A program made the translations under genes and the position numbers. Below the pieces are notes generated by a model. It saw only the letters and a program-made list of their open reading frames with translations. It was not told where the DNA came from and searched no databases. Shown here one piece after another: positions 1,511-48,500 of a DNA stretch of 48,675 nucleotides. Numbering within the stretch: the first letter of the stretch is position 1; the number at the start of each line of letters is the position of its first letter. This DNA comes from Girardia tigrina (Eukaryota): positions 1 through 48,675 of the forward strand of contig MQRK01254947.1 of assembly GCA_001938485.1 (NCBI GenBank). The letters run 5' to 3'.

Positions 1511-2353
1511 CTCAAGATAGCGCTCAAGAGAACTTCAAAACCAATTTTTGAAGAATTTTCACAGTTGACTATTATCAATCATTCAAATCAGTTTTTTTGA
1601 CTAAATATTGTATACTATTGTACAAAAAAGTTGTAAGTTGAATTTTTATTTAGTGTACTCTTATGATTATAATTAAATCCCATCTTTAACCTTATTTTTA
1701 TTTAATTATAGTAAAAAAAATTTTTTAACTATAATAATTGGTGTAAATTTGAATGCAAGCAATTATTTACAACACAAACAGATTCTTCACAACAATTTTC
1801 AGTGGTCATCCTTCTTTGATTAATATAGTTTTTGATTAAATATTTAAATATGAAAAAATCAATGAATGGGGAAATTTTAATATTACATTTTAATTTCTCA
1901 TAATTTTTATTGGATAAAAAGACATTATGTAATTTTTAAATAAACATTAATTTTTAAAATATATTAAATTTAATAAGTTAAAATCGTTTACTTATTTATA
2001 TTATTAAAATTCATAATTATCAAACTTTAATTAATTAGTACTTTAATTTAATATCATTAAATTAATTTCATTAGATTCAAATAATGAATCAAATAACATA
2101 TCAATCCCATCTGAGTAGGAGAGTCACAAATCTAAACAGCATACAAACAACAAACTTACAACATTCACAATTATCCCTCACAATAAAGAACAAATAACCC
2201 ACGAAATCATCAGAGGCATCAAAATCAAAGATATGATATTGCAGAAATGCATGATGACAACGATTACAACGAATATGAAGAAACACGATCAAATGAAGGA
2301 AATTCGAGGTAAAGAATGCGTACAGATAATAGGCAAGTATACGAGAAAGACCA

Positions 2354-2394
2354 GGGAAACGAGGATACACAATCACAAGGAGAGGTGATCAGTG
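2354..2394 (+). promoter_or_regulatory. -1 ribosomal frameshift signal of element B
   Basis: GGGAAAC at 2354-2360 plus downstream hairpin homologous to 283-313. Confidence 0.65.
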
Positions 2395-4735
2395 TGCTTC
2401 ACTAAAAAGTAAAAATGTGTGTGTATGTGATTGTGTATGTAATGGTATGTTGGATTGTGTGTTGGAAGATACCCCTCTCGAAGTTTGTGAATTAGATAGT
2501 TGGAAAGAAGAATTTGAAACATACTGTTTTGATAAGGAGATAAAGACAAAATTGCAAAAGTTGAAACAGGAAGAAATTTTGGAAATATCAAAGCTCAATA
2601 TTAGATATGACAAATTGAATGGAAGATCAAGCATTGAATTTAATACAAAGTATATGAATGTTGAATGTCTTTTGGATACCGGTGCCAAAGTAAATGTTGT
2701 TAAAGCAGATATACTTAAAAGTATGAAAGATGTTCAGATAGAAAAAAACGAGTAAACGTATTCATTGTACAAATGATTCAGAACTTATAAATTATGGAAT
2801 TGTTAAATTAAAAGTAATAATTGAAGGAGTACAAAAAATTATAGAGTTTTATGTTGTCAAAGAACTCAACCCAGAAATGATAGCAGGTGTTGCCTTTTTG
2901 GACAAATTTGGAATAAAACTAAAGAAGGAAATTATAGATTCAAGTGACATATGGATGATTAGAGATAGTCCAACAGATGATGACAGACTAAAGAGAATTA
3001 AAGAAATATTTAACACCAAAGTTGACAACGAACTAATGAGACTATTAACAGAATATAAATCAATATTCATGGCTGACAAGTGGGATGTTGGGAAAACTTC
3101 CTTAACGAAACACAAAATAGAAACTCTTGGAGAATCAGTCTTAGTGAAGCCTTATCGATTACCACAACATTCTGAAGAGAAACTAAATGATGTCATTAGA
3201 AATTTTGAAGAAAACGGTATAATTGAAAAGTGTAGTTCTCCATGGAACTTCTCTCTGGTGTGTGTATGGAAAAAAGAGAAACAAGACATCCGAGTATGTG
3301 TCGATTTTTGACAGTTCAATAAAATTACTGTAAGACTGGCATTCCCCATGCCAAATGTGGATGACATGTTAAACACTTTGAATGGAGCAAAATATTTTAG
3401 TACAATCGATGTAGGAAATGCATATTATCAGGTTGAATTAGAAGAAGATTCAAAGATTAAAACTGCGTTTTCCACAAAGAATGGTCAATATTGTTTTAAA
3501 AGAATGCCTTTTGGAATTGCAGCGGCTCCAGCTACCTTTCAAGAATTAATGGTGAAAGTTCTAGGAGATTTGAATTGGAAAGAAGCAGTCGTATATTTTC
3601 GATGATATTTTGATTTTTGCAAAAGATAGAGAAGAACATCTTCAAAGAATACATAACGTTTTTGAAAAAATTAAAGAATCCGGCTTGAGAATAAATCCCG
3701 AGAAATGTCAATTCCTAGTAGAAAAAACGAAATTTTTAGGATATGTCATAAGTAAAGAAGGTATTGAGACAGATAAAACAACGATTGATGCAATTAGAAA
3801 ATTTCAAAACCCATCATGTATCAAACATTTAAGAAGCTTTTTGGGTTTGACGAATTACTGTAGGAAATTCATAAAGGATTACGCTAGATATGCAAAGGTT
3901 TTAGAAGGCTTATGTGGTAAGAGCAAGGATAAAAAACTTATTTGGATTGAAGAATGTGATGAAGCTTTTCAAAAATTAAAAGAAAGAATGATTAAGACAC
4001 CAATTTTGGCATACCCTGATTTTTCAAAAGACTTTATACTCGATACAGACGCAAGTTTTGATACAATAGAAGCGGTGCTATTACCGAAAGACATTTGTGG
4101 AAGAGAAAGAGTAATTGCATATAGTTCCCATAAAATGAATAAACGTGAACTTGGTTATTGAATTACAAGGAAAGAACTGCTTGCAATTTATTATTTCACT
4201 CAACATTTTAAACATTTTTTGTATGGGAAAAAAATTTTGTTACGAACGGATCATAAAGCTATCACTTTTATGATGACTACGAAAAACGCTATTACACCAC
4301 AGTTTCAAACATGGATAAATTTCCTTAGTGGTCTTGACATGAAAATAGAATATCGGAAAGGTGAGAAACATTCAAATGCTGATGCGATGTCTAAAAATTC
4401 TTGTGAAATGTGTAGCCAATGTCAGACGATATATGAAAAAGCCAAGAAAGGAAAGATCAAGACGAGAATTCTTGCATTGAACGAAGAGTCAGAGGGTTTC
4501 AAATGGCAAAAGAATAATAAAGAAATAAAACAAATTGTTGAAGATATCAGAAAAGGGAAAACGAGGAAATTGTTACGGTCGAAAAATGTTACAGTCATCC
4601 ACGAACACGCAAACATAACAAATAACAGACACCGAAGAAAACAAAGAAAAAATCAGCAATTTTCATACATATATTTGAAACCTTATAACACAATGACCCC
4701 TTATATTCGGTTCCCTCGAAGCTCGTAGATGAAAA

Positions 4736-5538
4736 CTAAAAAACAATCATAAACGAATAAAATAGACAAAGTCGATAAAAAATTACCCGATAATAGAAAG
4801 AAGACCGACCCCACATAACACGCAAAACGAGCAATCTGGGATGACAACCCGCCGAGGATTTTCATACCCCGAGAATAGTTATAGATTCTGAAAGAAAAAA
4901 GAATTAAAATAGACCAAAAACTTAATATAATCGCCTACCGAATTGTCCATGGGAGTTGAGAGGTCAACTGACCCCCTCCGGATAGCCCCTTGCAGGATGA
5001 ATACCTGGGCGGAACGTATGGGTTGACAACGAACACTTGCAAGCAGTTATTATCCTTAAAGAGCAAGAAATTAATTAAAAAACTAGTCAGAATTAACAAA
5101 GTCACTTACTGGACGACCCGATGAGGCTACGGGGTCAGCCGACCCTCCCGTAATAGGTTATCGCACGGGCAATCCGTGGAAGAAACCCGCGAAGCCACCG
5201 GACCACCCTGAGTAAAGTTATGGGCCCTGAAAGTTCAAACAATTAATTAGGATAAACAAAGCTTAATTAAAAACTTACCATGAGTCACCCGCAAAGTCCA
5301 AAATTAGAAGTCGGCTGACAAGTCCAATGACTCGGCCGCATACCGACTCTAAAAATTTGCAGAGTGTGTCACGACACACAGGCACGATTCCTATAATAAA
5401 AAAGAATTTTCAAAATTTAAAAATTTTTAAAAGGGACACACCTACCCGGATTGACCAATCAGGATCGCGGAAAAGCCCAGACACTTATCTGGCGGAGATC
5501 TATTGGCCCTCAGAGATTGAAAGGGTGTTTCATCAACC
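4736..5538 (-). ncRNA. Array of five short GT-AG introns and 93-117 nt GC-rich exons inside the giant LTR (spliced, apparently non-coding)
   Basis: Minus-strand introns 5391-5445, 5227-5278, 5055-5109, 4888-4938 and 4736-4786 (55, 52, 55, 51, 51 nt). Donors GTAGGT, GTAAGT, GTAAGT, GTAGGC, GTAATT; each has a U-rich tract ending in AG. Exon 5110-5226 has stops in all three frames. Confidence 0.7.
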
Positions 5539-5773
5539 CTATAAAAAGGAGAACCACTTCGTCATTATCGCACAGCTATAATTACACAATTATAATCACA
5601 CAAAAAAAATTACACAAATATAATTACATAATTATCGCAAAGATCACCACGTGGTTGAAATCCATTGAGGAGACGACGAAACCGTTTTGAGGCCGCGAAT
5701 TCCACAATCACAAAAAAAACTACAACGAATCAATCGGGACCGGAGCGTCTAACAATCAACCGACGAGACGAAT

Positions 5774-5868
5774 AACTGATTCAGAACTAAACGAACGCCA
5801 GGGGAACCCCATTACGCGTCGATACACAAAGTCCGATTACATTCTTCCGTGACTGATTTTTCTATTGG
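5774..5868 (-). promoter_or_regulatory. Candidate LTR core promoter: Inr TCAGTT plus upstream CCAAT
   Basis: TCAGTT on the minus strand at 5779-5774, CCAAT at 5868-5864, directly upstream of the exon/intron array. Confidence 0.4.
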
Positions 5869-6058
5869 GCTCAGTTGTTATCATCAATGTAAATTTAACT
5901 TTTATATTTATTTGTTATCTATTATGAACTTCAATAATTTATGTATTTATGAGTTTTGTTTATTTGACATTTGATTTAATTATACTATATATAAGTAGTT
6001 TACTTTTCATAGAAAGAACTAAATAGCGCCGTCGTCGCCGCCGTCCGTCGTTCCAGTT

Positions 6059-6244
6059 ATGAATGCTCGCATTACGAACCCGTTTATCGAGCGCTTAGAG
6101 AATATTCTGGGACCCCTTCCGGATTTCGAGGTAGATGAGAACAACAATGCAGTCCGGGTCGCATTGCCACTAATTGTTAGCGACGTACGGTCGATAACCC
6201 TGGGCGAGATGCTCGAGTCGAATGGGCTGCACCATTTAGTATAA
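6059..6244 (+). CDS. 61-aa orphan ORF in the giant LTR, antisense to the LTR
   Basis: ATG-initiated, GC-richer than flanks. TATATATAAG at 5986-5995 and AATAAA at 6274-6279. No recognisable domain. Confidence 0.45.
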   Translation: MNARITNPFIERLENILGPLPDFEVDENNNAVRVALPLIVSDVRSITLGEMLESNGLHHLV

Positions 6245-7842
6245 CGGCGCGGAAGTCGCTCAGCAAATTGATAAATAAAGTTTTATAAACTGCAGTTTAA
6301 TTTTTTTTATTCGATTTAGAACTTACTCCCATTTGGTGACTTTAGGAATTTTATTTTTATAAGTTTTGTTATTAAGTCTTTAATATTAATAGTTGAGTAT
6401 CGGTTTTATTGATGAACGTTCAAGAGTATTTAATAAACATGAAAGTCGAGTTATTACATGGATATGTAAGGGTGTTTATTCGATAATAGGCGAGAGTATA
6501 AATTTTGCTAACGGGTGCTCAGAGATAATTTAGCGTAATTAAGGAGCTCGAATGAATTTATATTTAGTTTTGTATTACTAACAGTTTCTATCTTAATTAT
6601 TTTAATATGAAAGATTATAAATACCTTGATTCTGAACCCCGCAGCAACTCGTCAAACGTCTTACACATAATCGGTTCAACGGCGAGCATCATTCGAAATA
6701 TTGCTCAAGGTCGTTGATTAAAGTGCGATATTAAAACAAACGCGGAGGCAACCAGTTTTGAGAAATGCGACTTTATTGATATAAATAAGTTAATTTTAAC
6801 GATTTCCTATCGGTGCAGGTCAAATAACAACGATATTCTATATTATATATATTTAGTTTTATGATTATTTCAGATGGTTAAAATTGATTTTTAGGATTAA
6901 CTTTCGAATTAAACGATAAATTTACGATTTTGAATTAAAAGATAATTTTATTTACTCTAGTTTTGGTTCTGATAATTTTAATAATTTTATAGTTTTACAA
7001 CCGATTCTAATTTAGGTAGAACTAATGTTTATTCTAATACGTAAATCGTACAAAGTAATGACTCGAATCCTTAACGAATTATGAATATTAAATTAGTAAA
7101 TTTTCGCTAGTAAATTAAGTTGGTGTTACTATTAGTAATTTGAGTCGAAATTGTTTCATATTTTATTCTGCTAACATTATAACAAAATGTAACTGAGTGG
7201 ATTTGCGATTATCGACAAAGAATTTTGTTAAGGAATTTTTCTAAAGAATTTAAAAATCAAAATGCGTTTGCGAATGTTGAGTTATTTTGAATGAAATAGT
7301 GCGAAATTATATTTTGTTAATAAGGGATTCTATTAATAATTTAAATTATTTTGAGCGGAATCGTTACACTTTTGTTAATTAGGAATTGCTAAATAATTGA
7401 TGGATCAAATCGATATCAGAGTTTTATAGCAATTTAAATGACGAATCCCTCAATGTTAATTATGCAGCAGATTAATATCACGATGATATTTTGCGATACA
7501 GTATAACGTAAAACATATAAACGATTGCCAGGGGATTTGCTGCTAATATAAGGACTATGTAGTTACACTGCCGAAGATGAATTGACATTACAGGATAATT
7601 TTGGATAATTGAAAGTTCTAGGAGTATAAGCTATCCTTCTGCGAGTGCCGCAAGTTTCACGTTACAAACTCAACATAACATAACTTAACACTGCCCTAAG
7701 TCTTGAAAATTTATACCACAATGCCACAGTTCGACAAAACCGTACACAACATTGCCACAAGTATAACACGACACATAACACAACAGTGCAACAAGTTTGA
7801 CAATACATAAAGATGACGATTCTGAACACATTACGAAAATCA

Positions 7843-8088
7843 TCCCCGAGCGACGCTCCGCTAGGCGGGGGGCCCATAGCCCATCCCGTCTTGAACCGAA
7901 CCCGAAGGTCCTCCAGACTCTTCACTGTTAGACAGATGTTGAGCGAGGAGAGACGTCCGACCCAGGTGAAATAAATAAATAAGAATTAGGTTAAACATTA
8001 AAATTTGAGATCGGGTTGTGGTGGACCCTTAACCAACCACTGGGGGCTCAGAGCACTTAAAAGTGTTGTGAACAGAGGGGTCGTGACA
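7843..8088 (-). ncRNA. Conserved structured RNA element at the LTR (inferred U3) terminus
   Basis: Compensatory changes versus 47041-47290: GTGGT/ACCAC to GTGAC/GTCAC; GTC-T-CTCC/GGAG-GAC to GCC-T-CTTC/GAAG-GGC; CTGT/ACAG to CTGC/GCAG. Includes a cUUCGg side loop. Confidence 0.65.
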
Positions 8089-9092
8089 AAATGGACACTA
8101 AAAAATGACATCGTGGCAACTCAGGACAATAAATACTGGATCCCAAAAGAAAAACGAACAGATTTCATTGAATAGATGCACATGCTGTTATACCATGCTG
8201 GTAGTAAAAAAGTCTATAACTATCGTCGAGAAGATTTTGACATGGAAAATATGAGGAATTTCATTAAAGAAGTAGTCCAAAGTTGTTTAAATTGTCAAAA
8301 AAGAAAGACATAAACTTCGAAAACGAAAGAAAAACATATAAAATTGTCGGCAGATGAACCTTTCCAGAAAATATACATGGATTTCTGTGGACCATTCAAA
8401 AGAAACATAAACGGATATCAATACGTACTTGCAATAGTAGACCAATTCAGTAGATATATTAGCCTGAATGCAGTTGCTAGTCAAGATGAAAAAAACAGTT
8501 CGTAGAGTGATATTGGACAGATGGATATGGAAATTTGGACATCCAAAGTAAATCCATGTTGATATAAGAAAAACATTTGAATAGGCTTTGTTCAAAGATA
8601 CAGTTAAAAAATTCAAAGTCGATAGTATCTATTCAAGTCCATATCATCATAATACAAATGGGATAGTGGAAAGACAATTTCGAACAATCAGGGATGCTAT
8701 AAATATTAGAATGAAGGACGGAAACTACAGAGATTGGACAGAAGTTTTGTCGGAAATAGAATTTATGTTGAATAGTACAATTCAAGCTATGACAGGTGTT
8801 TCACCGGCTGAAATAATATTTGGGAGACAATTAAGACATTGATGGAAAAACAATAAAGAAACTAACGGAAACCAAGTTAATGTCGAACAAAATATGGAGC
8901 CAAGAAGAGTTTTTGAAATTGGAGACAGAGTGTTGATAAAAAAAGAAAATATATCAAAAGAAGATGACCGTTACATGGGTCCGGCAATTGTGTTGAAACG
9001 AAATCACGAAAGGAGTTACGAGTTACAGCTCGAAGATGGTAGAACTTTGATTAGAAATGTTGAATGGCTAAAGCCATTTAAACCGACGGGGA

Positions 9093-9550
9093 TGTGAGGA
9101 ATGTTTTGAATTGTGTATTGATACTGTGCATGTATAATGTTGATTCGGATTGTGCCTCTCCTACACAGATGGATGATTGATATTTTCTTTGATTCTTAAC
9201 TAATTAAAAATAATTTAATTTAATTGTAAAGTAAAAAGATTTAAAATGATTTTTGAATGTATTATTTATTTTTTAATGTAATTTAAAATTTTAATATATG
9301 TTAATATATTTTAATAATATGTTCTTTTTTTAAAAAAATGTTTAGATTTAATTTCAACCAATTAGATTCTTTATAATTAATAATTTTTATTAACAGATTT
9401 TCATTTATTGAAAATAATTAGTTTGAACTCAGAAATATATTGATCAAGAGAGATGTCAAATAGTGAATGCGCTTGTGATATTAATAAATGTTGTAAAACT
9501 CATATTGATGTTGTTAATAATCATAAAATATAATTGTCAGGAACACCGCA
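9093..9550 (+). mobile_element. 3' LTR of gypsy element B (~460 bp)
   Basis: Purine tract GACGGGGA then TGTGAGG at 9093. AATAAA near 9483. Ends CCGCA at 9550; the end is inferred because no 5' LTR is available to compare. Confidence 0.6.
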
Positions 9551-9670: not shown

Positions 9671-11632
9671 TTATTTCGCCGGTAATCCATGTAATGTTAA
9701 GTTATATTTGGAAATGATTTCTTGTGGAATTAGTTTCTCAAAATTTTGAAAGAAGGTACGATAGACAGAAATGATTGTCGCCTCCGAGACTCCGATAATA
9801 TCACTGATTTCTGTTTGAAGAAAGTTTAAAGATTTTACAACAATCAAATAATAACTTACGTTTCTTGGAAACATTTTCCTTCAGTAAGAGACTGGCCATG
9901 TAAATTGATGCACCGATGATCGAATGAGAAGTTTTACTAATCAACTTTTCTACTGATTTCGCAAGTACTCTGGCCAAAATTTCAACTTGTTTGTTTTTTA
10001 TTGACAATTGATAGCAAAATCGGCCCATTTGTTCAAACACATTCAGTGGTTTGGTTCCTAATTTCAATGCATTGATTATCTTCTTTGTCATTTTCCCAAT
10101 ATGCCTCAATGAACAATTCGACACAGTACAAATCTCTGAATGGTTTAAGTTAAATCTCCAGGTTTCATATCAGAAATCAAAAACTATTAATTATCAAACT
10201 CAAATATTTTATATTTGGTTTTATTAAAATTATTTCAGGTTGCTAACAATAAAGAACAAAATCCTAATGAACAGAAAATTGTTTGTAGAAAGGTCATATA
10301 ATATCCTTCAAAATATTTAAAAGGATATCGATTTTATATTACTATTTATATTTATTAGGTCTTTTATAATTAAAATAAGTAGTTATACTAGGGTAACCAT
10401 ACGTCCGCAGTTTCCCGAACACATCCGGGTTTGTATGTTCATTTCATAAAATTTTCATCTAATTTTTAATTATTATCCGATAAATTTCATGTTAACTGTA
10501 AAAATATGTCAAATTAAACGGTATTATTGAAAGAAGCCGTAAATTTACGACGAGAATCACGTATTAGTATTAATATTTGAACATTGTCGTTTAATTAAAC
10601 ATTTGAAATTCAAATTCTGTATAATGATAATTTAGAAAAACGTCTTTCAGCTTAATCTTTTGTCATCCCCAAAATATACAACTTTTTAATGTATAAAGTA
10701 GGATACAAATTATTACATACAACTCTATTTTTAATGTTTTTCTTTTATAAATATTTTATTAAAATGAATATCTTTCTGATATTTTTATAAGAAATATTTT
10801 TTATAATAATATTTTTTTAAGGTTGGGAGTATATTGAGTTAAACGATATGTCTCTTGGTATAGAATGACGATAATGTATTTTCGGTTCCAGTGATTTAAA
10901 ATGTGTTATTACCAAATATTTTTTACTATTTAGAAGTACAATCGGTCAAATTTAAAAAGAAAGTTATTAACGAATCATCTTTACAATTTAAGTATACCTT
11001 TCAAGGTCCGAGTAACATCATAATTCCTGCAAGCGATGTATATACAAGCACAAGCGATTTGTTCCTTGTTTAGTCTTGTAAATCCTCCCATTTCAGTTAG
11101 TTTCTTTACTATTGACAATGCGTCTTTCTAAAAATTTATTATTAATAATTAAGTTATAGACCTATACAAACCTGTGTGCTTAAATCAATTTTTAAACGGA
11201 CCCCGAGTGTTAGAATGTGAGTTCTGTATTGTTTAATCATTCTTTCAGCAGAAGATTCTGAAGTTCGACTTTTATATTTCGGATTTCCATTTTCGTCGAA
11301 ATATCTCGAATCATAATAATGTTGAATTGTTATAGATGTTGTCGGATCTAAATCGTTGCTATCTTCAACAGCTGCGACCCTAGAATTGTCGACCCCATCA
11401 TCATTTGCAAAAGACCGCCATTCAGCATCAAAATAGATGACTCTAAATAATATTAAGTCAACTACACCTTAACAAACTTTTTACCGTTCTGCAACAATTA
11501 AACCACACTTAGGACATATTAAATTCCCAGCTTTATAATCTTCAATTAAAGTAGCACCAGGATGATATTTGCAATGGACTCTACTAAAGAGTTTTTTAAT
11601 AATTAAAATATTATACCAACACTCTTTTCCAT
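9671..11632 (-). CDS. GTF2B: Transcription initiation factor IIB-like protein (divergent), 6 exons, ~308 aa
   Basis: Exons 11632-11617 (tentative), 11578-11485, 11442-11172, 11127-10998, 10135-9860, 9810-9671 join in frame through GT-AG introns (38, 42, 44, 862, 49 nt). Zn ribbon CKYH...CPKC, B-reader [20 protein letters not shown], cyclin repeats [17 protein letters not shown] and [21 protein letters not shown]. Exon 1 needs a weak GAG acceptor, so the start is uncertain. Confidence 0.9.
10389..10430 (+). mobile_element. hAT-type terminal remnant within TFIIB intron 4
   Basis: TAGGGTAACCATACGTCC resembles hAT TIRs. No partner TIR found. Confidence 0.4.
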
Positions 11633-14923: not shown

Positions 14924-15821
14924 ATATTATAGTTTTATTTATAGAAAACAGAATCTATCTCTTTTACAGATTTTTTCAAATTTTCTTTATTTTATATGTT
15001 TTTGTATCTTTTATGTTCGATTTCTCAATAAATGATTCTTTTATTTTTATTTATTTAATTTTTTATTTACTAACTTATATATTTATTTGTGTTTGAAAAT
15101 AAGCGTTTCTTTATTTATTTATTAAAAAGTATTAATAAGCTAAGATAATTGTTAAATCAGAATTTTTATAATAAGGCTTTAATAATTAGTAAATCAATAA
15201 ATCAGTCAATGCTGATGGCGGTCGATCCTTCGAAATATATTGTCATGTTGCTTTTTGATTTCATATGAAGAAAACGATTTTATTAATATTTAATATATTA
15301 AAATGATATTGTATCAATTATTAAAAATTTAAATAATACATATATATATATATATATATNNNNNNNNNNNNNNNNNNNNNNNNNNNNNNNNNNNNNNNNN
15401 NNNNNNNNNATATTATAGTTTTATTTATAGAAAACAGAATCTATCTCTTTTACAGATTTTTTCAAATTTTCTTTATTTTATATGTTTTTGTATCTTTTAT
15501 GTTCGATTTCTCAATAAATGATTCTTTTCTTTTTATTTATTTAATTTTTTATTTACTAACTTATATATTTATTTGTGTTTGAAAATAAGCGTTTCTTTAT
15601 TTATTTATTAAAAAGTATTATTAAGCTAAGATAATTGTTAAATCAGAATTTTTATAATAAGGCTTTAATAATTAGTAAATCAATAAGTCAGTCAATGCTG
15701 ATGGCGGTCGATCCTTCGAAATATATTGTCATGTTGCTTTTTGATTTCATATGAAGAAAACGATTTTATTAATATTTTATATATTAAAATGATATTGTAT
15801 CAATTATTAAAAATTTAAATA

Positions 15822-15845
<24 letters not shown>
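14924..15845 (+). repeat. ~435-bp direct duplication across an N gap (probable haplotype overlap)
   Basis: 14924-15359 recurs at 15410-15845 with about four substitutions; both copies end in (AT)n. Confidence 0.8.
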
Positions 15846-16785: not shown

Positions 16786-16963
16786 TTAAACAAAAATAAC
16801 ACCATTTTAATTTTAAATTTTTATTCGAAAACATGTTTCGCCACTTTTGTGGCATCTTCAGTTCTGTATTTAATTAGAAAGTTATTGTTTATATAGAAAA
16901 GAAAGTGGCGAAACATGTTTTCGAATAAAAATTTAAAATTAAAATGGTGTTATTTTTGTTTAA
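16786..16963. repeat. 62-bp inverted repeat of a Penelope-like pseudo-LTR end
   Basis: Arms 16786-16847 and 16902-16963. The left arm overlaps a hammerhead; the right arm holds only its 3' half. Confidence 0.75.
16827..16864 (-). ncRNA. Minimal type I hammerhead ribozyme
   Basis: GAA-CUGAAGA-U-GCCAC(AAAA)GUGGC-GAAA-CAUG-UU-UUC; AATAAA follows. Confidence 0.8.
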
Positions 16964-26308: not shown

Positions 26309-26478
26309 AACTTAAAAAGCAAAGACTCATTTAAATAGTGTTTATTTCTTTAAATTTTGCACATTTCCTTCACTGAATATTTTTGGTAGATGCCTAAACT
26401 AATGTAATATTCAGTGAAGGAAATGTGTAAAATTTAAAGAAATAAACACTATTTTAATGAGTCTTTGCTTTTTAAGTT
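26309..26478. repeat. Fold-back inverted repeat, 73-bp arms, 24-nt spacer
   Basis: 26309-26381 is the reverse complement of 26406-26478 with about three mismatches. Confidence 0.9.
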
Positions 26479-34863: not shown

Positions 34864-36200
34864 TGTTGCGTTCCCATCTCTCAACAACATTTTTGCGAGC
34901 TCTGAGCCCCCAGCCGCTTTCTGATATAAACGACAACTCATTATTTACACTCTCCATGTACAGGGCGAACGGACACGTCTCCTCCATGTATATCAGCAAG
35001 CTGTATACACTTCGGAGCGCCTTCGGGTTTCAAACCAGCATCGGGGATGGCCCGGCCGGTAGCTGCAGCGTTTGTATAGTTGATCTATATTCTATTTATA
35101 TGTGTTATATTTACATTTTATTTACTTTGATCAGAGTGAAGAGAGCCTCGAAGAAGCAGACAACGACCATCCAGCGTGATCGCCGGGGACGGTTCGCGTC
35201 GCCTCTAAAAGGTTCTTCAGCTCTTTTATCTTGATTAACATGTAAACTACTTCGTACCAAATCGAAACTTACCTTTTATTGTATATACAGAACGTTAAAG
35301 GCTGTATTCTAATTTTCGGGGTTTAATTAAAGTTAGTTAAATTCTGAAATATGAAATAAATAATTCGTAAACTGAAATTGATTACGTTATATAAAACTAT
35401 TAAAACTAAGGTTATCAACACAACTTAAGGTTATGTTTAAGCATACTTATTACTACTGAAAGGTACCAAATAACTAAAGGATTAACACTTAAATTATCAT
35501 GAAATAATGGTGAACATTTGTAAGTAGATAAATCATTTATTTACATAAATAGATTTTTCAAAACAAAACAAAGACATAACTCTGATTAATAGGAAATTAA
35601 AATTAAGGTTATTACTCGGTGGAAATTTTTACAATTACTTACGAAAAGTCAAATTATGAAATATTAAATATGATTGAGGATGAATAACGCTACTAAAATC
35701 AGGATTATTACACTATATGGATTAACATGTTACTGTCAACAAATATCAAAATATCATAGGTTTAAAATTATTATTGCGACAAAGGTTTTACTATTTCGAA
35801 TCACATCTCCGGGATTATTAAACTAAATTACGCTATGTACAATCAGATCACTCCCGTTACGCTATTAGTTACATGCCATCGTTGGGTGGCAACTCTCATA
35901 ACCAAAGGTAGATCGACGATCCTTTCTCATTTTTCTTAGTTCCTGATTATTCAGATGGAGTTTATCAATGTAATTAAGTGACAGTCGGGAGTTTAACATG
36001 GTTTTGAATAATTCAATATCAAAATAAGATTTAATATAATCGCAAAATAAATGAAACTAAAATTAAAATCGGAAAATTATATTTAAAAACAAATAACAGA
36101 TTACATAAAAGTAAAAACGAATCAAATACGATATCAAACCATACCTTTGATTTGTTATCAATAAATTATATATAAATTATTCTACTCAAATGTGCAAAAT
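34864..36200 (+). mobile_element. 5' part of a large LTR of a second family sharing the structured terminal motif; right end undefined
   Basis: Starts TGTTGCG. Shares GCTCTGAGCCCCCAG, CGTCTCCTC and GGAG..CCTTCGGGTT with the 8088 and 47041 termini, and is homologous to 44747-45031. Confidence 0.55.
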
Positions 36201-39601: not shown

Positions 39602-40691
39602 TTCCGATGACAATACAATTTGATAAAAAAAATTTTGAAAAAAAATAATTTATATTTATTATTCTATTTTTTAGAAATTTATTGTAATATATTATTTTTT
39701 TATATTTATTGTTGAAAAGAATTTTGTCGTATTAAAAAAGAAAATAAACGACCTAAATTTATTTCTAGACAAAATAAACTACAGACTCAAATCAACTAAT
39801 GATTCATATATTTTGGAGCGCCGCCGTTGCATGGGCCCACTGGTCCAGCCGAGCTCGCACTCCAGGGCTTAAAATAATATAACATTTGAGAGCCCTGTTA
39901 TCGTCTCGATGATGGATGCAAATTGCGTGATGCCTATGTTGTTCATAGTAATCCAGCACCCTGACGGCTAGTGCATAGTTCCTAGTTCTTGCCAAGCATT
40001 TTTCGAGATCCTTTCTCTTATCCTTATTGTGAATTCGTTTTAGTCCTTCTTCCTGTAAAATAAAATTATAGTCATAAATTAATATACAAATAATAATTAA
40101 CCTTAATCTCGGCAATTTTTTNNNNNNNNNNNNNNNNNNNNNNNNNNNNNNNNNNNNNNNNNNNNNNNNNNTTCCGATGACAATACAATTTGATAAAAAA
40201 AATTTTGAAAAAAAATAATTTATATTTATTATTCTATTTTTTAGAAATTTATTGTAATATATTATTTTTTTATATTTATTGTTGAAAAGAATTTTGTCGT
40301 ATTAAAAAAGAAAATAAACGACCTAAATTTATTTCTAGACAAAATAAACTACAGACTCAAATCAACTAATGATTCATATATTTTGGAGCGCCGCCGTTGC
40401 ATGGGCCCACTGGTCCAGCCGAGCTCGCACTCCAGGNCTTAAAATAATATAACATTTGAGAGCCCTGTTATCGTCTCGATGATGGATGCAAATTGCGTGA
40501 TGCCTATGTTGTTCATAGTAATCCAGCACCCTGACGGCTAGTGCATAGTTCCTAGTTCTTGCCAAGCATTTTTCGAGATCCTTTCTCTTATCCTTATTGT
40601 GAATTCGTTTTAGTCCTTCTTCCTGTAAAATAAAATTATAGTCATAAATTAATATACAAATAATAATTAACCTTAATCTCGGCAATTTTTT
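39602..40691 (+). repeat. 520-bp identical duplication across an N gap (probable assembly overlap)
   Basis: 39602-40121 equals 40172-40691 apart from one N. Confidence 0.85.
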
Positions 40692-40740: not shown

Positions 40741-43700
40741 TTAAATTAGAGGAATAAAAGATTGGCTGTGGCACTGCTTTAAGTACCAATTGCCATTGTT
40801 CGACTTCAGTCTCGAACGTAATCTAATCGAGTCGTGTTGTTTTCAACTGACGACTTACAAAAAAAATTTATTTCTTTATCAATTGTACAAGTTTACTTGC
40901 GATAAAAGTCTAGACAATTGTGCATACGGCAGCAGTACGATACGCGCAGACGAGACATTTACGTTTTTCGTTTTTGAAATAACATTTATATTTTATTTTA
41001 TATTTTAAATTGCTTTTTAAAAAATATTTTCTGATTTTTCAAATTAATTTCAATTTTAAATTAATTTTATTAATATTATTATTTTAATAAAATTCATTTT
41101 TAATTTTTAATATGACATTTCTGTTAATTTTTTCAACTTTAAAATATTCTTAGTTGCAATACTAATACTAATTATTGTTACTATAATTACCATAGCAATA
41201 ATAATGATTATTGATAAACTTCCTGACAGGATGAAGTTATTTTTTAATAAAACAATAATATTATTAATAAAAAATTTTTTTTATAAAAACAACCACGTTT
41301 TTCAAGCATTACCAATGCACTAAAAGGAGGAAAATAATTTTTTTCTAGACATGTGAGAAATTTTATACCTAANNNNNNNNNNNNNNNNNNNNNNNNNNNN
41401 NNNNNNNNNNNNNNNNNNNNNNNNNNNNNNNNNNNNNNNNNNNNNNNNNNNNNNNNNNNNNNNNNNNNNNNNNNNNNNNNNNNNNNNNNNNNNNNNNNNN
41501 NNNNNNNNNNNNNNNNNNNNNNNNTCTGAATTACTGCTATTAGTAACTGCTATTTCCTCTTTACTGCTTTTTAGTAACAATCGATCATTTCTATACCCCA
41601 CGTTTTTGGTTAGGTATAAAATTTCTCACATGTCTAGAAAAAATTATTTTCCTACTTTTAGTGCATTGGTAATGCTTGAAAAACGTGGTTGTTTTTATAA
41701 AAAAATTTTTTTATTAATAATTTTGTTTTGGTGACAGATCTGAATCAAATAATTTCACGAAAGATCTCTTTCCACACAATTTTTCTAACCGTGAAATACC
41801 TAAAGACGAATTAGGTTTAAGTCTCAGGGAGAAAAGAGCTTCTGGAAGGATGTCTAACCAGTTTGAGTCATTTCCTTTAAGTCGTATTGTTTGTTTGAGA
41901 TATCTGTTAAAGATCTCGACTTTACCATTGGAGTTTGGGTTATATGGAGTGGTTCTGATTTTAACAATACCAAAAGATGTGCAAAACTTTTTGAATAGAT
42001 CAGATTCAAACTGTCGCCCTTGATCTGATATTAATTTTTTTGAGGGCCATATCTACAAATCCAGTTCTCCTTGATTGCTTTGATTATTGTTACTGAGGAA
42101 ATATCTGGCACTGGAATGGCTTCCAAACCATGATGAAAAACGATCAATTATAGTGACTATGTATTTTATTTCGCGATTTGGTGGAAGCGGACCGATTATA
42201 TCTACGTGAATAATATCGAATATGCCCCCTTCCTTAAATTGTATTTTCCTGATTGTTATTCTACTTCTAGATTTCTTTAAACGATAACGATATTCATAAT
42301 GACCAAAATTGTGTATTGAAGCGATACAAGTTTGTCTCAGGTTTTTAGGAATCAAAGGACGAAAATGTCAGACAACGAAACGTCATACCAAATTCCTTTA
42401 CTTTCTTTCAATTTGATTGATGGATAGTTGGCACATTCTTTTACCACTTCTAATTGTTTACCAAGACGGTCACTAGTGGTAAGATTAGGGTAAAAATTTA
42501 TACAACCTACGGGATTACGAGACATAAAATCTGCGGCTACATTGGAATTCCCAGACACGTATTTGAAACAACAATGGAATTGCGAGATATAACAAGTTTG
42601 AGTCAATTGTCGAGGCGTAAGATCTTTTAAAGATAGTAACTGAAGAAGAGGTTTGTGACCTGTGACAATTGTGAACTTACGGTCCTCTAAGAAATGTCGA
42701 AAATGTTTGATAGACTTGTAGATGGCTAAAAGTTCCCTATCAAAAGTTGAATATCTTCGTTCTGTTTCTTTTAATTTTGAAGAGTAAAAAGCAATAGGAT
42801 AGACTACATCGTTTAATCTTTGTTCAAAAACACTACCGATGACATAGGAGGACGCGTCGGTGGTTAAATATAATTCCGATCCTTTTTGTAAGCAAGTTAA
42901 CTTGGTAATGTTTTTTAAAGCTTTTTTACCTCTAAGAAAGCTACCTCTAGAACTTCGTTCCAAGTAATTTTGTCAAGTTTCTTTTTTTCTTTTATTGTTT
43001 TAGTAAAAGGAGACAATAGCAGTGAACAGTCTTTTATAAATTGGTGGTAGAATTGATCATACCATAAATTCGGCGGATCTCTCTTACGTTATTAGATGGT
43101 TTAAGATCTAGGATGTATTGGATCTTCCCATTAATTGAACTGAGACTGTTTTCACTGATAGTGTGACCAAAAAAATCCACACTTTGCAAAAAGTAAGAAC
43201 ATTTTTTTAAATTTATTTTTAGGTTTTGTTTATCTAAAACTTCTAAAACTTCAATTAGATGATTTTCATGCTCTTTTATATATCTAGAACCCACCAAAAT
43301 GTCGTCTAAATAAACTACAACATGTTTTGAATTTCGAAAAATTTGGTCCATGGCTCGTTAGAATGAAGCGGTCGCATTCTTCAAACCAAAAGACATACGA
43401 ATAAACTCGAAGAGACCAAAAGGAGTAGTAACCGCCGTTTTACAAACGTCTTCTTCGGCCATAGGAATTTGATAATACGCTTGAATCAAATCGATTTTAC
43501 TGAAGATTTTTGCGCCTGGCAGTCGAGTAGTGACATCTTTTATTAAAGGAAGAGGGTACTCATCTTTCAAAGTTATCGCATTAAGTTTACGATAGTCTCC
43601 ACAGCAATGCCAATCACCATTCGGTTTTTTTGCATGAGTAATGCTGAAGACCAGTGGGAAGACGAACTTCTTGTAATTTTACGGGCTTCCAAGTCTAGAA

Positions 43701-44746: not shown

Positions 44747-45031
44747 GAAGAGTGGCGAAGAACCTTTTATAGATAGCACAGGTCGACCACAGTATGCATA
44801 GGAGCACGTGGTTCGATCGTCGCTTATCTCTTTAAGGCTCTCTTTGTCCGTCATAATGATTAACTATGGAAGTTACAATGCGCAATAAGAAATAATAACC
44901 ATGATGATAAATAAGCAAAGTATGGGAGCAATCTATCAACCCCTCAGACGCTGAGGCTACCGTTCGGGCCTTACTCGTTACGGGCTCGAACCCGAAGGCG
45001 CTCCGAAGCGTATACAACTCGTTGATATACA
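44747..45031 (-). mobile_element. LTR fragment homologous to ~34986-35226
   Basis: Shared TGTATATCA..TGTATAC.CTTCGGAGCGCCTTCGGGTT, AAGAGAGCCT and AAAAGGTTCTTC blocks. Confidence 0.75.
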
Positions 45032-47040: not shown

Positions 47041-48500
47041 TGTCACGACCCATTCGTTCGTAGCAGTTTTGAACGCTCAGAGCCCCCAGTGACTATTAAG
47101 GGTCAGTCACAACCCAGTCTTAGTTTATTACTCAACTATGACTATATATATTACTTATACTTTATAGGGTCGGACGCCTCTTCTCGCTCGACATCTGCCT
47201 GGCAGTGCCGAGTCTGAAGGGCCTGTGGGTTCGGATAAAGATGGGATGTGCTATGGGCCCCCCACCTAGCGGAGTGTCGCTCGGGGATGATATTTTCCTA
47301 ACTATAAGTCGATGCCTTATCATTTATTGTTATGTTTATTGTGTATTATGAATCTTATGGCAATGTTATGTTTGCGTGTGGACTTAGTGCATCTGTTTGT
47401 CGTGTCTAATTAACTTACAGCTGTTATGTATATCCGTAAACTCGCTGTAGTGGTGTATATTTTCTTGCGGATGCATTACACATGTTTGTCCGATCTGTAA
47501 TGTTTATGTGAGTGGTTTTCACTTGCAGCATTGTGATGGGTCATCCAACTTGTGGCACTGTATATGTCATGGCGTAACTGGAGAAGACATCATGTTATAA
47601 CACATCATCATTGTGTCGTATCAGAACTATCTTTAGTTATTATTATTTATCATCGTATCATTCAAGAGTCGACAGTCAACAGCAGCTCTAAATAAACCGG
47701 TTCTATTTTCATTCTATCGATGCGAATTTACGAGATTTATATCGGTCAGCTTTACAGAGCTCGAATCAATTCGTTACGGGTTCATAAATCGCTTAATCCG
47801 TAAATTCCTATAGCTCGATTTCACTATACACTTTCCTAGTCAAATTACTCGCGAAAATTAGTTTTTATAAAATTCATATCTTCTATTTTATTTTATCGGT
47901 TTCCTTTAAAGACAATCACGCAAGACAAAACACTCAAGGTAGATTTGTTACCGATACTCATTTAACTCAATCCTTAAAAACTGTTCATCAAGTTGAATCG
48001 ACTAATTACATAAATTCGTATCTCGTTCGGTTGTGAAATCTATCTAAAATATATTTTCTGTCGAGATAAATCAAATTCACTTTATATTAAATCATAACCC
48101 GTTAGAAAATTAAAATATCGAATTGTAATTCCTTAAAATTTGATCAGATTAAAATATTCCTCATTAATACAAATACTTATATATAAATTTGATCAAAATA
48201 AATTAATTAGATATATACATTTTTCCATTTATCTAATAATTTAAAGCGAATAACTAAAATACGATTATGAATTTTTATCGATGCAATTTAATTATAAAAT
48301 TCAATATCAACTCTCTAAAATTCGGTTACTAAGGCTGTTTGTTTAAAATATTCAAATTATATCCTAACCTTGGAGCACATTTTCGGTTCTCAAGAAAATT
48401 TTAATCAAAAGGTTTTTTAACTCATTTTAAGAAAATAACCGCATAGATGGAGCAGGTAATTCTTTTCATTTTTATAATCCTCACTTTCTGATTTCAATTT
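47041..48500 (+). mobile_element. Diverged partial copy of the giant LTR family
   Basis: Starts TGTCACGACCC. 47041-47291 aligns to the reverse complement of 7841-8088 and has the same ACTTRYRGCA-like motif array. Right boundary not defined. Confidence 0.75.

Follow-up and report, generated by a model that had tools for sequence, protein, structure and literature searches.

The 3' end of a long terminal repeat (LTR) in the Girardia tigrina genome carries a covarying RNA domain, modelled from 80 aligned copies, which we regard as real, and its conserved single-stranded blocks match the host tRNA-Pro. The module is the U5 end of the LTR and lies in the 5' leader, just upstream of the primer-binding site (PBS), of an element that is a Burro-like giant gypsy retroelement. 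Set beside known systems, the module is best read as a multipartite domain for primer-tRNA capture and activation, which would vary on the extended primer contacts of the Ty1, Ty3, gypsy and HIV type. The window, the whole 48,675-nt stretch that was analysed, is a single contig of a 1.43-Gb AT-rich assembly. An earlier note on it had proposed that an LTR terminus holds a cis-acting RNA element that covaries and is unannotated, and this proposal is borne out, an Rfam scan having returned no match; the element had been located at 7843-8088, but the conserved unit is slightly larger (7839-8088).

The LTR and the element behind it

The module closes a solo LTR of 3,518 bp (4571-8088, + strand, TG...CA), the ends of which were set by relatives with unrelated flanks. 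A target-site duplication (TSD), AAAT, flanks it at 4567-4570 and 8089-8092, and the empty-site joint that connects 4566 to 8089 is present in contigs of all four runs, from three samples. The LTR sits inside the pol of another gypsy element, between RNase H and integrase, and this decayed host pol (2333-9097, + strand), with RT and RNase H before the insertion and integrase after it, serves as context only. An internal TGTCACGAC at 5367 was considered as an LTR end and rejected. Within the LTR, a TATA-like box at 5540-5546 (+ strand) is, from its sequence, a putative U3 promoter, and a 73-codon open frame occupies 6023-6244 (+ strand). Elsewhere in the window, two related gypsy pol regions, 74% identical, stand in tandem at 259-1508 and 2344-3582, and two short frames at 9671-10169 (- strand) resemble what we take to be a TFIIB/cyclin-fold fragment. 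Near-perfect, MITE-like inverted repeats of 62-119 nt occur at 41254-41727, 26309-26478 and 16786-16963, and near-identical direct duplications beside N gaps at 14924-15845 and 39602-40691 are probably assembly artefacts.

The 255 nt up to 8088 are common to the relatives, many of which part sharply at about 7836. A TSD-matched far end was found at 2.1-3.9 kb in 12 of 20 long genomic regions, and 143 termini have no common flank apart from duplicates of one locus; these units are therefore solo LTRs. A self-contained single-repeat element was also considered, and was rejected after PBS-flanked copies turned up. The 13-mer core of the module, at the inner site described below, has 4,159 exact matches in the genome, compared with 8 for a reversed control, and exact 18-nt PBS sites number 189 (control 0); by these two counts solo LTRs dominate the genome, in a ratio that assembly fragmentation may inflate. 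A depth peak over the module was also seen in contigs of RNA runs, which may reflect sequence common to families.

The host tRNA-Pro(UGG) ends in CCCGGCUGAGCCC followed by CCA. In an unbiased sample, an 18-nt tRNA-Pro PBS lies directly beyond the terminus in 3 of 30 copies, and among 32 PBS loci examined, 31 come after such an LTR end and one is unrelated. In 5' LTRs, the 3' terminus of the LTR is followed by a U-rich linker of 4-5 nt and then by the 18-nt PBS, which at one locus (L175) extends into a longer tRNA complement. Since the canonical tRNA-Pro PBS comes after this LTR end, the sense strand is the one opposite to that read in the earlier note and the module stands at the U5-side end, not close to the genomic RNA's 3' end as had been proposed. 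A 3' copy of part of the module may also be present in the RNA, depending on the poly(A) site, and AATAAA occurs at 6274, 6432 and 7970 of the window LTR; no 3' LTR with a PPT was found on the contigs fetched, which are fragmented.

Accessory ORFs and a TRAF/MATH ORF follow the PBS, together with gag, CCHC, a ubiquitin-like domain, a Monjiviricetes-type fusion protein, protease, dUTPase and RT. The gag-env-pol arrangement with the ubiquitin-like domain, env before protease and dUTPase before RT was found in one element behind an A/B-type LTR (L271, L343), across one scaffold gap, and the MATH/TRAF accessory ORF in an element with a family E LTR (L265). In the latter, an open TRAF-like ORF of 455 aa with a zinc finger and MATH spans L265:7339-8706, about 700 nt past the PBS. 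No Pfam match to BCL2 was obtained at E≤0.01. The element is likened to Burro by the published description of its proteins: as far as the available part of that account goes (PMC6431247), Burro, or GYPSM1, of planarians has the same long LTRs, the same upstream accessory ORFs including a TRAF/MATH ORF, and the same CCHC-bearing gag and ubiquitin-like domain, with env placed after gag and before protease, and dUTPase after protease and before RT. By itself this layout would make a planarian host likely. This part of the account deals with proteins only and gives no PBS, solo LTR or LTR RNA structure (PMC6431247).

Covariation and the predicted fold

The sequence GCTCWGAGCCCCCAG occurs exactly at 8040-8054 (- strand), 34899-34913 (+ strand) and 47075-47089 (+ strand), and five matches at ≤3 mismatches were found in the window against 0.09 expected. 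Besides the module of the solo LTR, the window holds a complete module at an LTR end (47041-47290, - strand), a complete but decayed module of a second lineage (34864-35085, - strand) and a truncated copy that keeps only the 5' box, hairpin H2, the anti-T box and upper H3 (44936-45031, + strand); a profile search of the window gave no further copy. The pairings quoted in the earlier note are all present in the sequence. Its shared block holds for three of these four copies, but the copy at 44936-45031 has neither the block nor the GTGGT/ACCAC stem, and one arm of its long hairpin is missing. The note was right that more than one family is involved, but its count of two was too low, as at least four LTR lineages carry the module. 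A further diverged lineage (L222, L229) keeps the 5' box, the anti-T box, H3 and the inner site, and seems, in the copies at hand, to have lost the LTR terminus.

For the covariation analysis, 192 segments were clustered at 93% identity into 82 representatives, 80 of which were aligned on the sense strand, leaving out L218 and L239, whose upstream sequence is non-homologous. RNAalifold predicts 29 pairs from the 80 rows, 24 of them with two-sided change. In a 47-pair model, which was drawn partly from the same 80-row alignment used to test it, 91.4% of positions are paired and 36 pairs show change on both sides, while slid controls reach 39-48%. Significance was estimated with our own test modelled on R-scape, which applied an APC-corrected G statistic to 230 columns and drew on 60 tree-based nulls; in this test the top five column pairs are all Watson-Crick pairs of the proposed helices (E 0.03, 0.07, 0.10, 0.20 and 1.5). 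Under this phylogeny-aware null, 8 of the 47 proposed pairs have p<1.1e-3, and they are spread across H2, H3, P4 and pseudoknot stem 2. The covariation that the earlier note had seen in four copies thus persists in a deeper and more diverse alignment. The strand it had chosen did not survive the wobble pairs, which count 295 G-U against 109 A-C cells, favour G-U in 66 versus 10 of 80 sequences and do so in 8 of the 9 columns with ≥10 such cells; the fold is therefore favoured on the sense strand of the element.

The module begins with a 5' box, which is followed by hairpin H2 (7864-7890, + strand), predicted to have 10 pairs and a 3' bulge; all 10 pairs show two-sided change, and pair 125/143 reaches p=7.8e-6. 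The long bulged hairpin H3 (7909-7953, + strand) corresponds to that of the earlier note, its bulged bases being A on the + strand, and pairs 186/192, 185/193, 169/214 and 179/200 are significant. The long-range helix P4 would join 7955-7963 (5' strand of the helix, + strand) to the LTR 3' terminus, which provides its 3' strand (8078-8088, + strand), and its pair 222/403 tops the covariation of the whole alignment (E=0.03; A-U 35, U-A 33, C-G 7). An AT-rich spacer of variable length and sequence (7964-8012, + strand) separates P4 from a likely H-type pseudoknot, predicted at 8013-8040 (+ strand) from stems S1 (8013-8017/8025-8029) and S2 (8018-8023/8035-8040). Two pairs of S2 reach p=2.4e-4 and 7.4e-4, and S1, which is 91.5% paired with a G-C/A-U swap and a best p of 3.2e-3, is suggestive only and apparently missing in family E. 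In our reading, the pseudoknot would have the classical short loop 1 and A-rich loop 3 on the sense strand only. A conserved hairpin in the 5' box was tried in three registers and failed the covariation test.

At the gathering threshold, Rfam gave no match to the module in the window; under relaxed settings it gave one chance match outside the module (E 2.1), and none at E≤1 in eight loci. Covariance models of ribozyme, IRES, T-box and tRNA families did not match the module, and ARAGORN called no tRNA in it. Likenesses to HDV, pistol, hammerhead, group II D5, RNase MRP and SECIS were dropped, their cores being missing and Rfam giving no match.

Complementarity to tRNA-Pro

Judged by the host tRNA sequence, the near-invariant block of the earlier note is a second complement of the tRNA-Pro 3' end, placed inside the LTR. 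This inner site (8041-8051, + strand) measures 11 nt in the window, with a core of 9 nt, and in 29 of the 32 PBS loci a 9-11-nt complement of this kind lies 50-77 nt upstream of the PBS; of the remaining three, two miss the stretch through a gap or contig end, and one is the unrelated locus. The core is exact in 65 of 80 copies and the 11-mer in 27. The site matches tRNA-Pro including the non-encoded CCA (z -2.8, 1 of 100 shuffles), with z between -2.2 and -3.0 in each of three families. Its position 10 varies (A 36, U 31, C 6), which leaves only 9 constant bp, and a small 3-bp hairpin overlapping the site (8046-8048/8052-8054; closing pair G-C 42, G-U 34) sequesters part of it.

The energy tests behind these scores compared eight blocks with tRNA-Pro, with 12 other host tRNAs (the controls being 12 non-Pro anticodon types only) and with shuffles, in 40 of the 80 rows or in up to 8 rows per family. 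In these tests, the 5' box (7839-7862, + strand) scores as a complement of tRNA-Pro nt 1-24, that is the 5' acceptor strand and the D arm (z -2.9, 0 of 100 shuffles, better than the 12 other host tRNAs). The best duplex covers nt 1-24 in 46 of the 80 copies and stays inside nt 1-25 in at least 64, most copies sharing one register; the columns that pair are conserved, and those that vary (103-106) lie opposite tRNA nt 10-14, which are weakly paired. By family, the best tRNA is always a tRNA-Pro. With Pro(UGG), the shuffles that score as well number 0 of 600 in families C/D, 5 of 600 in E and 124 of 600 in A/B, the last of which is not significant; in A/B the best partner is Pro(CGG), at -23.2 versus -18.8 for the best non-Pro tRNA, the shuffles having been made with Pro(UGG). 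In LTR A, other stretches score equally well with Pro(UGG).

The third box, GAACCCG (7898-7904, + strand), is complementary, like a PAS, to the T arm of tRNA-Pro and occurs exactly in 53 of 80 copies. It is weak by energy (z -1.3, equalled by 12 of 100 shuffles; by family -1.1 to -2.6) and tRNA-Arg scores better, so that the anti-T box is not specific to tRNA-Pro. The cUUCGg side loop stressed in the earlier note is the reverse of this box; covariation does not support it as a loop, and the bases in its middle are variable.

None of the five helix-forming blocks matches a tRNA (z +0.2, +0.7, +0.7, -0.4 and +1.4). Few independent events stand behind the tRNA matches, because all copies share ancestry, and eight blocks were tried. 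Between families, identity is 39-61% in the module and 31-41% in the spacer and upstream flank. The blocks are ordered D arm, T arm and acceptor, which is neither a tRNA copy nor a circular permutation of one, and no family with a switched primer was found, against which co-switching could show.

A gypsy-like element of another host, on a metagenome contig (Ga0316188_10003102; L331/L332), has a different tRNA-Pro PBS, with an inner site 50 nt before it. Both of its LTR copies bear the inner site followed by GAG(C/T), with a hairpin just before the site, and the anti-T and anti-D-like words GAACCC and ATCATTCCC stand about 70 nt upstream; these words are exact matches of 5-6 nt that other tRNAs equal, and alone they are not significant. 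The LTR measures about 710 bp, a PPT is present, and AATAAA lies 163 nt before the inner site, with all module-like parts downstream of it. A tRNA-Pro PBS follows each of the two LTR copies, which is a tandem arrangement. The other matches of the collection scan, at 8 of 10 metagenome loci, at both prokaryote loci and at all 3 + 1 viral ones, look like chance or like tandem repeats, which leaves only L331/L332, on one contig, as a fit.

Models of primer handling

The earlier note had offered export, packaging, stability or catalysis as functions. The match between the primer tRNA and the conserved single-stranded blocks speaks for primer handling more than for export, stability or catalysis, and we consider it probable that the folded leader presents three tRNA-Pro-binding boxes, which P4 holds beside the PBS, and so helps to capture, open and activate the primer. 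In such a model, the pseudoknot and the 3-bp hairpin would stack on either side of the inner 9-11-nt site, which would leave UGGGG free for the CCA end of tRNA-Pro. After opening of the tRNA, the 5' box would pair with nt 1-24 and GAACCCG with the T arm, in the manner of the HIV PAS and the Ty1/Ty3 boxes. By folding back the end of the LTR, P4 would bring the true PBS up against the domain, and priming at the PBS would yield an intact integrase end. Because priming from the inner site would lose that end, the inner site would serve docking or a second tRNA; either a single tRNA would move on from there to the PBS, or two would be bound.

A bolder and rather unlikely version is a tRNA loading dock. 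Here the pseudoknot-stacked inner site would catch the CCA of tRNA-Pro while the tRNA is folded and uncharged, much as a T-box does, the D-arm and T-arm boxes would unfold it, and the PBS would receive it; RNA structure would then select the primer, possibly sensing charging, in a gypsy lineage present in more than one animal group. In the T-box riboswitch antiterminator, a UGGN stretch between helices can pair with the CCA end of a tRNA, which is an analogy only: the module has no T-box family match, and no terminator or specifier loop was identified in it.

Extended primer contacts are known, in the available parts of the respective accounts, from Ty1 (PMC3592414), Ty3 (PMC5371799), Drosophila gypsy (PMC1635307) and HIV-1 (PMC11181671). 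The multipartite PBS of Ty1 (boxes 0, 1 and 2.1; PMC3592414) and the bipartite PBS of Ty3 (PMC5371799) likewise involve extra RNA boxes, to which the primer tRNA is paired through its T and D arms, and Ty1 also has a pseudoknot near its PBS (PMC3592414). As described there, these elements have short PBSs, with boxes placed downstream or in U3 (PMC3592414, PMC5371799), whereas here the PBS has the full 18 nt, every box is upstream within the LTR and the acceptor-end site is duplicated. Drosophila gypsy similarly has a second, 11-nt site for its primer tRNA, but that site is reported to pair with the anticodon/T stems and to lie close to the 3' end of the RNA (PMC1635307), while here the 3' acceptor complement is repeated 50-77 nt from the PBS. 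The HIV-1 PAS has the same topology, a short T-arm-complementary motif upstream of the PBS, and the part of its account compared describes no anti-D-arm box, duplicate acceptor site or pseudoknot (PMC11181671). Helenus TRIMs, as far as their account was available, also carry tRNA-related sequence inside the LTR, but as a colinear tRNA-like Pol III promoter without complementarity to its PBS (PMC10886601), whereas here the complements are short and non-colinear and no tRNA gene was found; a Helenus-type tRNA-derived LTR promoter was rejected, as there is no tRNA call and the block order is not colinear. The compared parts of an errantivirus survey (PMC13524379) and a planarian genome comparison (PMC11410931) make no mention of a primer-docking feature. 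The available portions of the literature searched describe neither a duplicated acceptor-end site nor a Burro LTR structure; the primary Burro paper, supplements and Repbase, which lie outside this comparison, may bear on novelty.

Among the competing explanations, it is unlikely that the fold is instead a packaging, dimerisation or nuclear-export signal for Gag or a host protein, with the inner site at most touching the tRNA. The bulged A residues of H3 are conserved and its internal loop is rich in purines, and the 5' leaders of Ty1 and retroviruses, in the parts of the accounts available, overlap such signals with primer signals (PMC3592414, PMC11181671), so that this may be a second role and not an alternative; nevertheless, the best-conserved unpaired columns are the tRNA-complementary ones, and the apical loops vary in size and sequence with no common palindrome. 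We find improbable an IRES-like or translation element, in which the pseudoknot and hairpins would bring ribosomes to the first accessory ORF, some 110-140 nt past the PBS. An ORF does start soon after the PBS in many copies, the leader would reach up to 2.5 kb if the TATA at 5540 marks the start, and Drosophila gypsy has a 5' IRES according to the available part of its account (PMC1635307), yet the module matches no IRES family, and its duplicated tRNA 3'-end complement and anti-D-arm box would be left unexplained.

The tRNA-like matches could also be relics of primer read-through or captured tRNA copies, kept for intramolecular pairing or as DNA sites near the integrase end, which appears quite improbable. 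Read-through does happen, as the extended PBS of L175 shows, and the 5' CCCC could pair intramolecularly with the inner GGGGG, but the blocks are not colinear with a tRNA copy, persist in lineages whose neighbouring DNA is unalignable, and include a column (344) that varies freely opposite an invariant would-be intramolecular partner, while the inner site is repeated in a different host. Finally, it is highly improbable that the active molecule is the opposite-strand RNA of the earlier note, or minus strong-stop DNA, with cUUCGg and bulged-U motifs and possibly a self-cleaving ribozyme: the opposite strand briefly exists as strong-stop DNA, Watson-Crick covariation is blind to strand and column 179/200 favours that strand, but the wobble cells (295:109), the pseudoknot loops as we read them, a cUUCGg stem with one constant pair and variable middle bases, and the lack of a ribozyme family match at E≤10 or E≤1 speak against it.

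How LTR elements choose and unfold their primer tRNA is known from a few yeast, fly and retroviral models, and the extra contacts are disputed. With thousands of natural copies in several lineages, the module would offer an evolutionary footprint of a complete primer-handling domain, in which the duplicate acceptor-end site inside the LTR is a feature absent from the accounts compared. It also gives a marker for orienting and finding Burro-type LTRs, and tools that search for the PBS can misplace the LTR end by about 50 nt.
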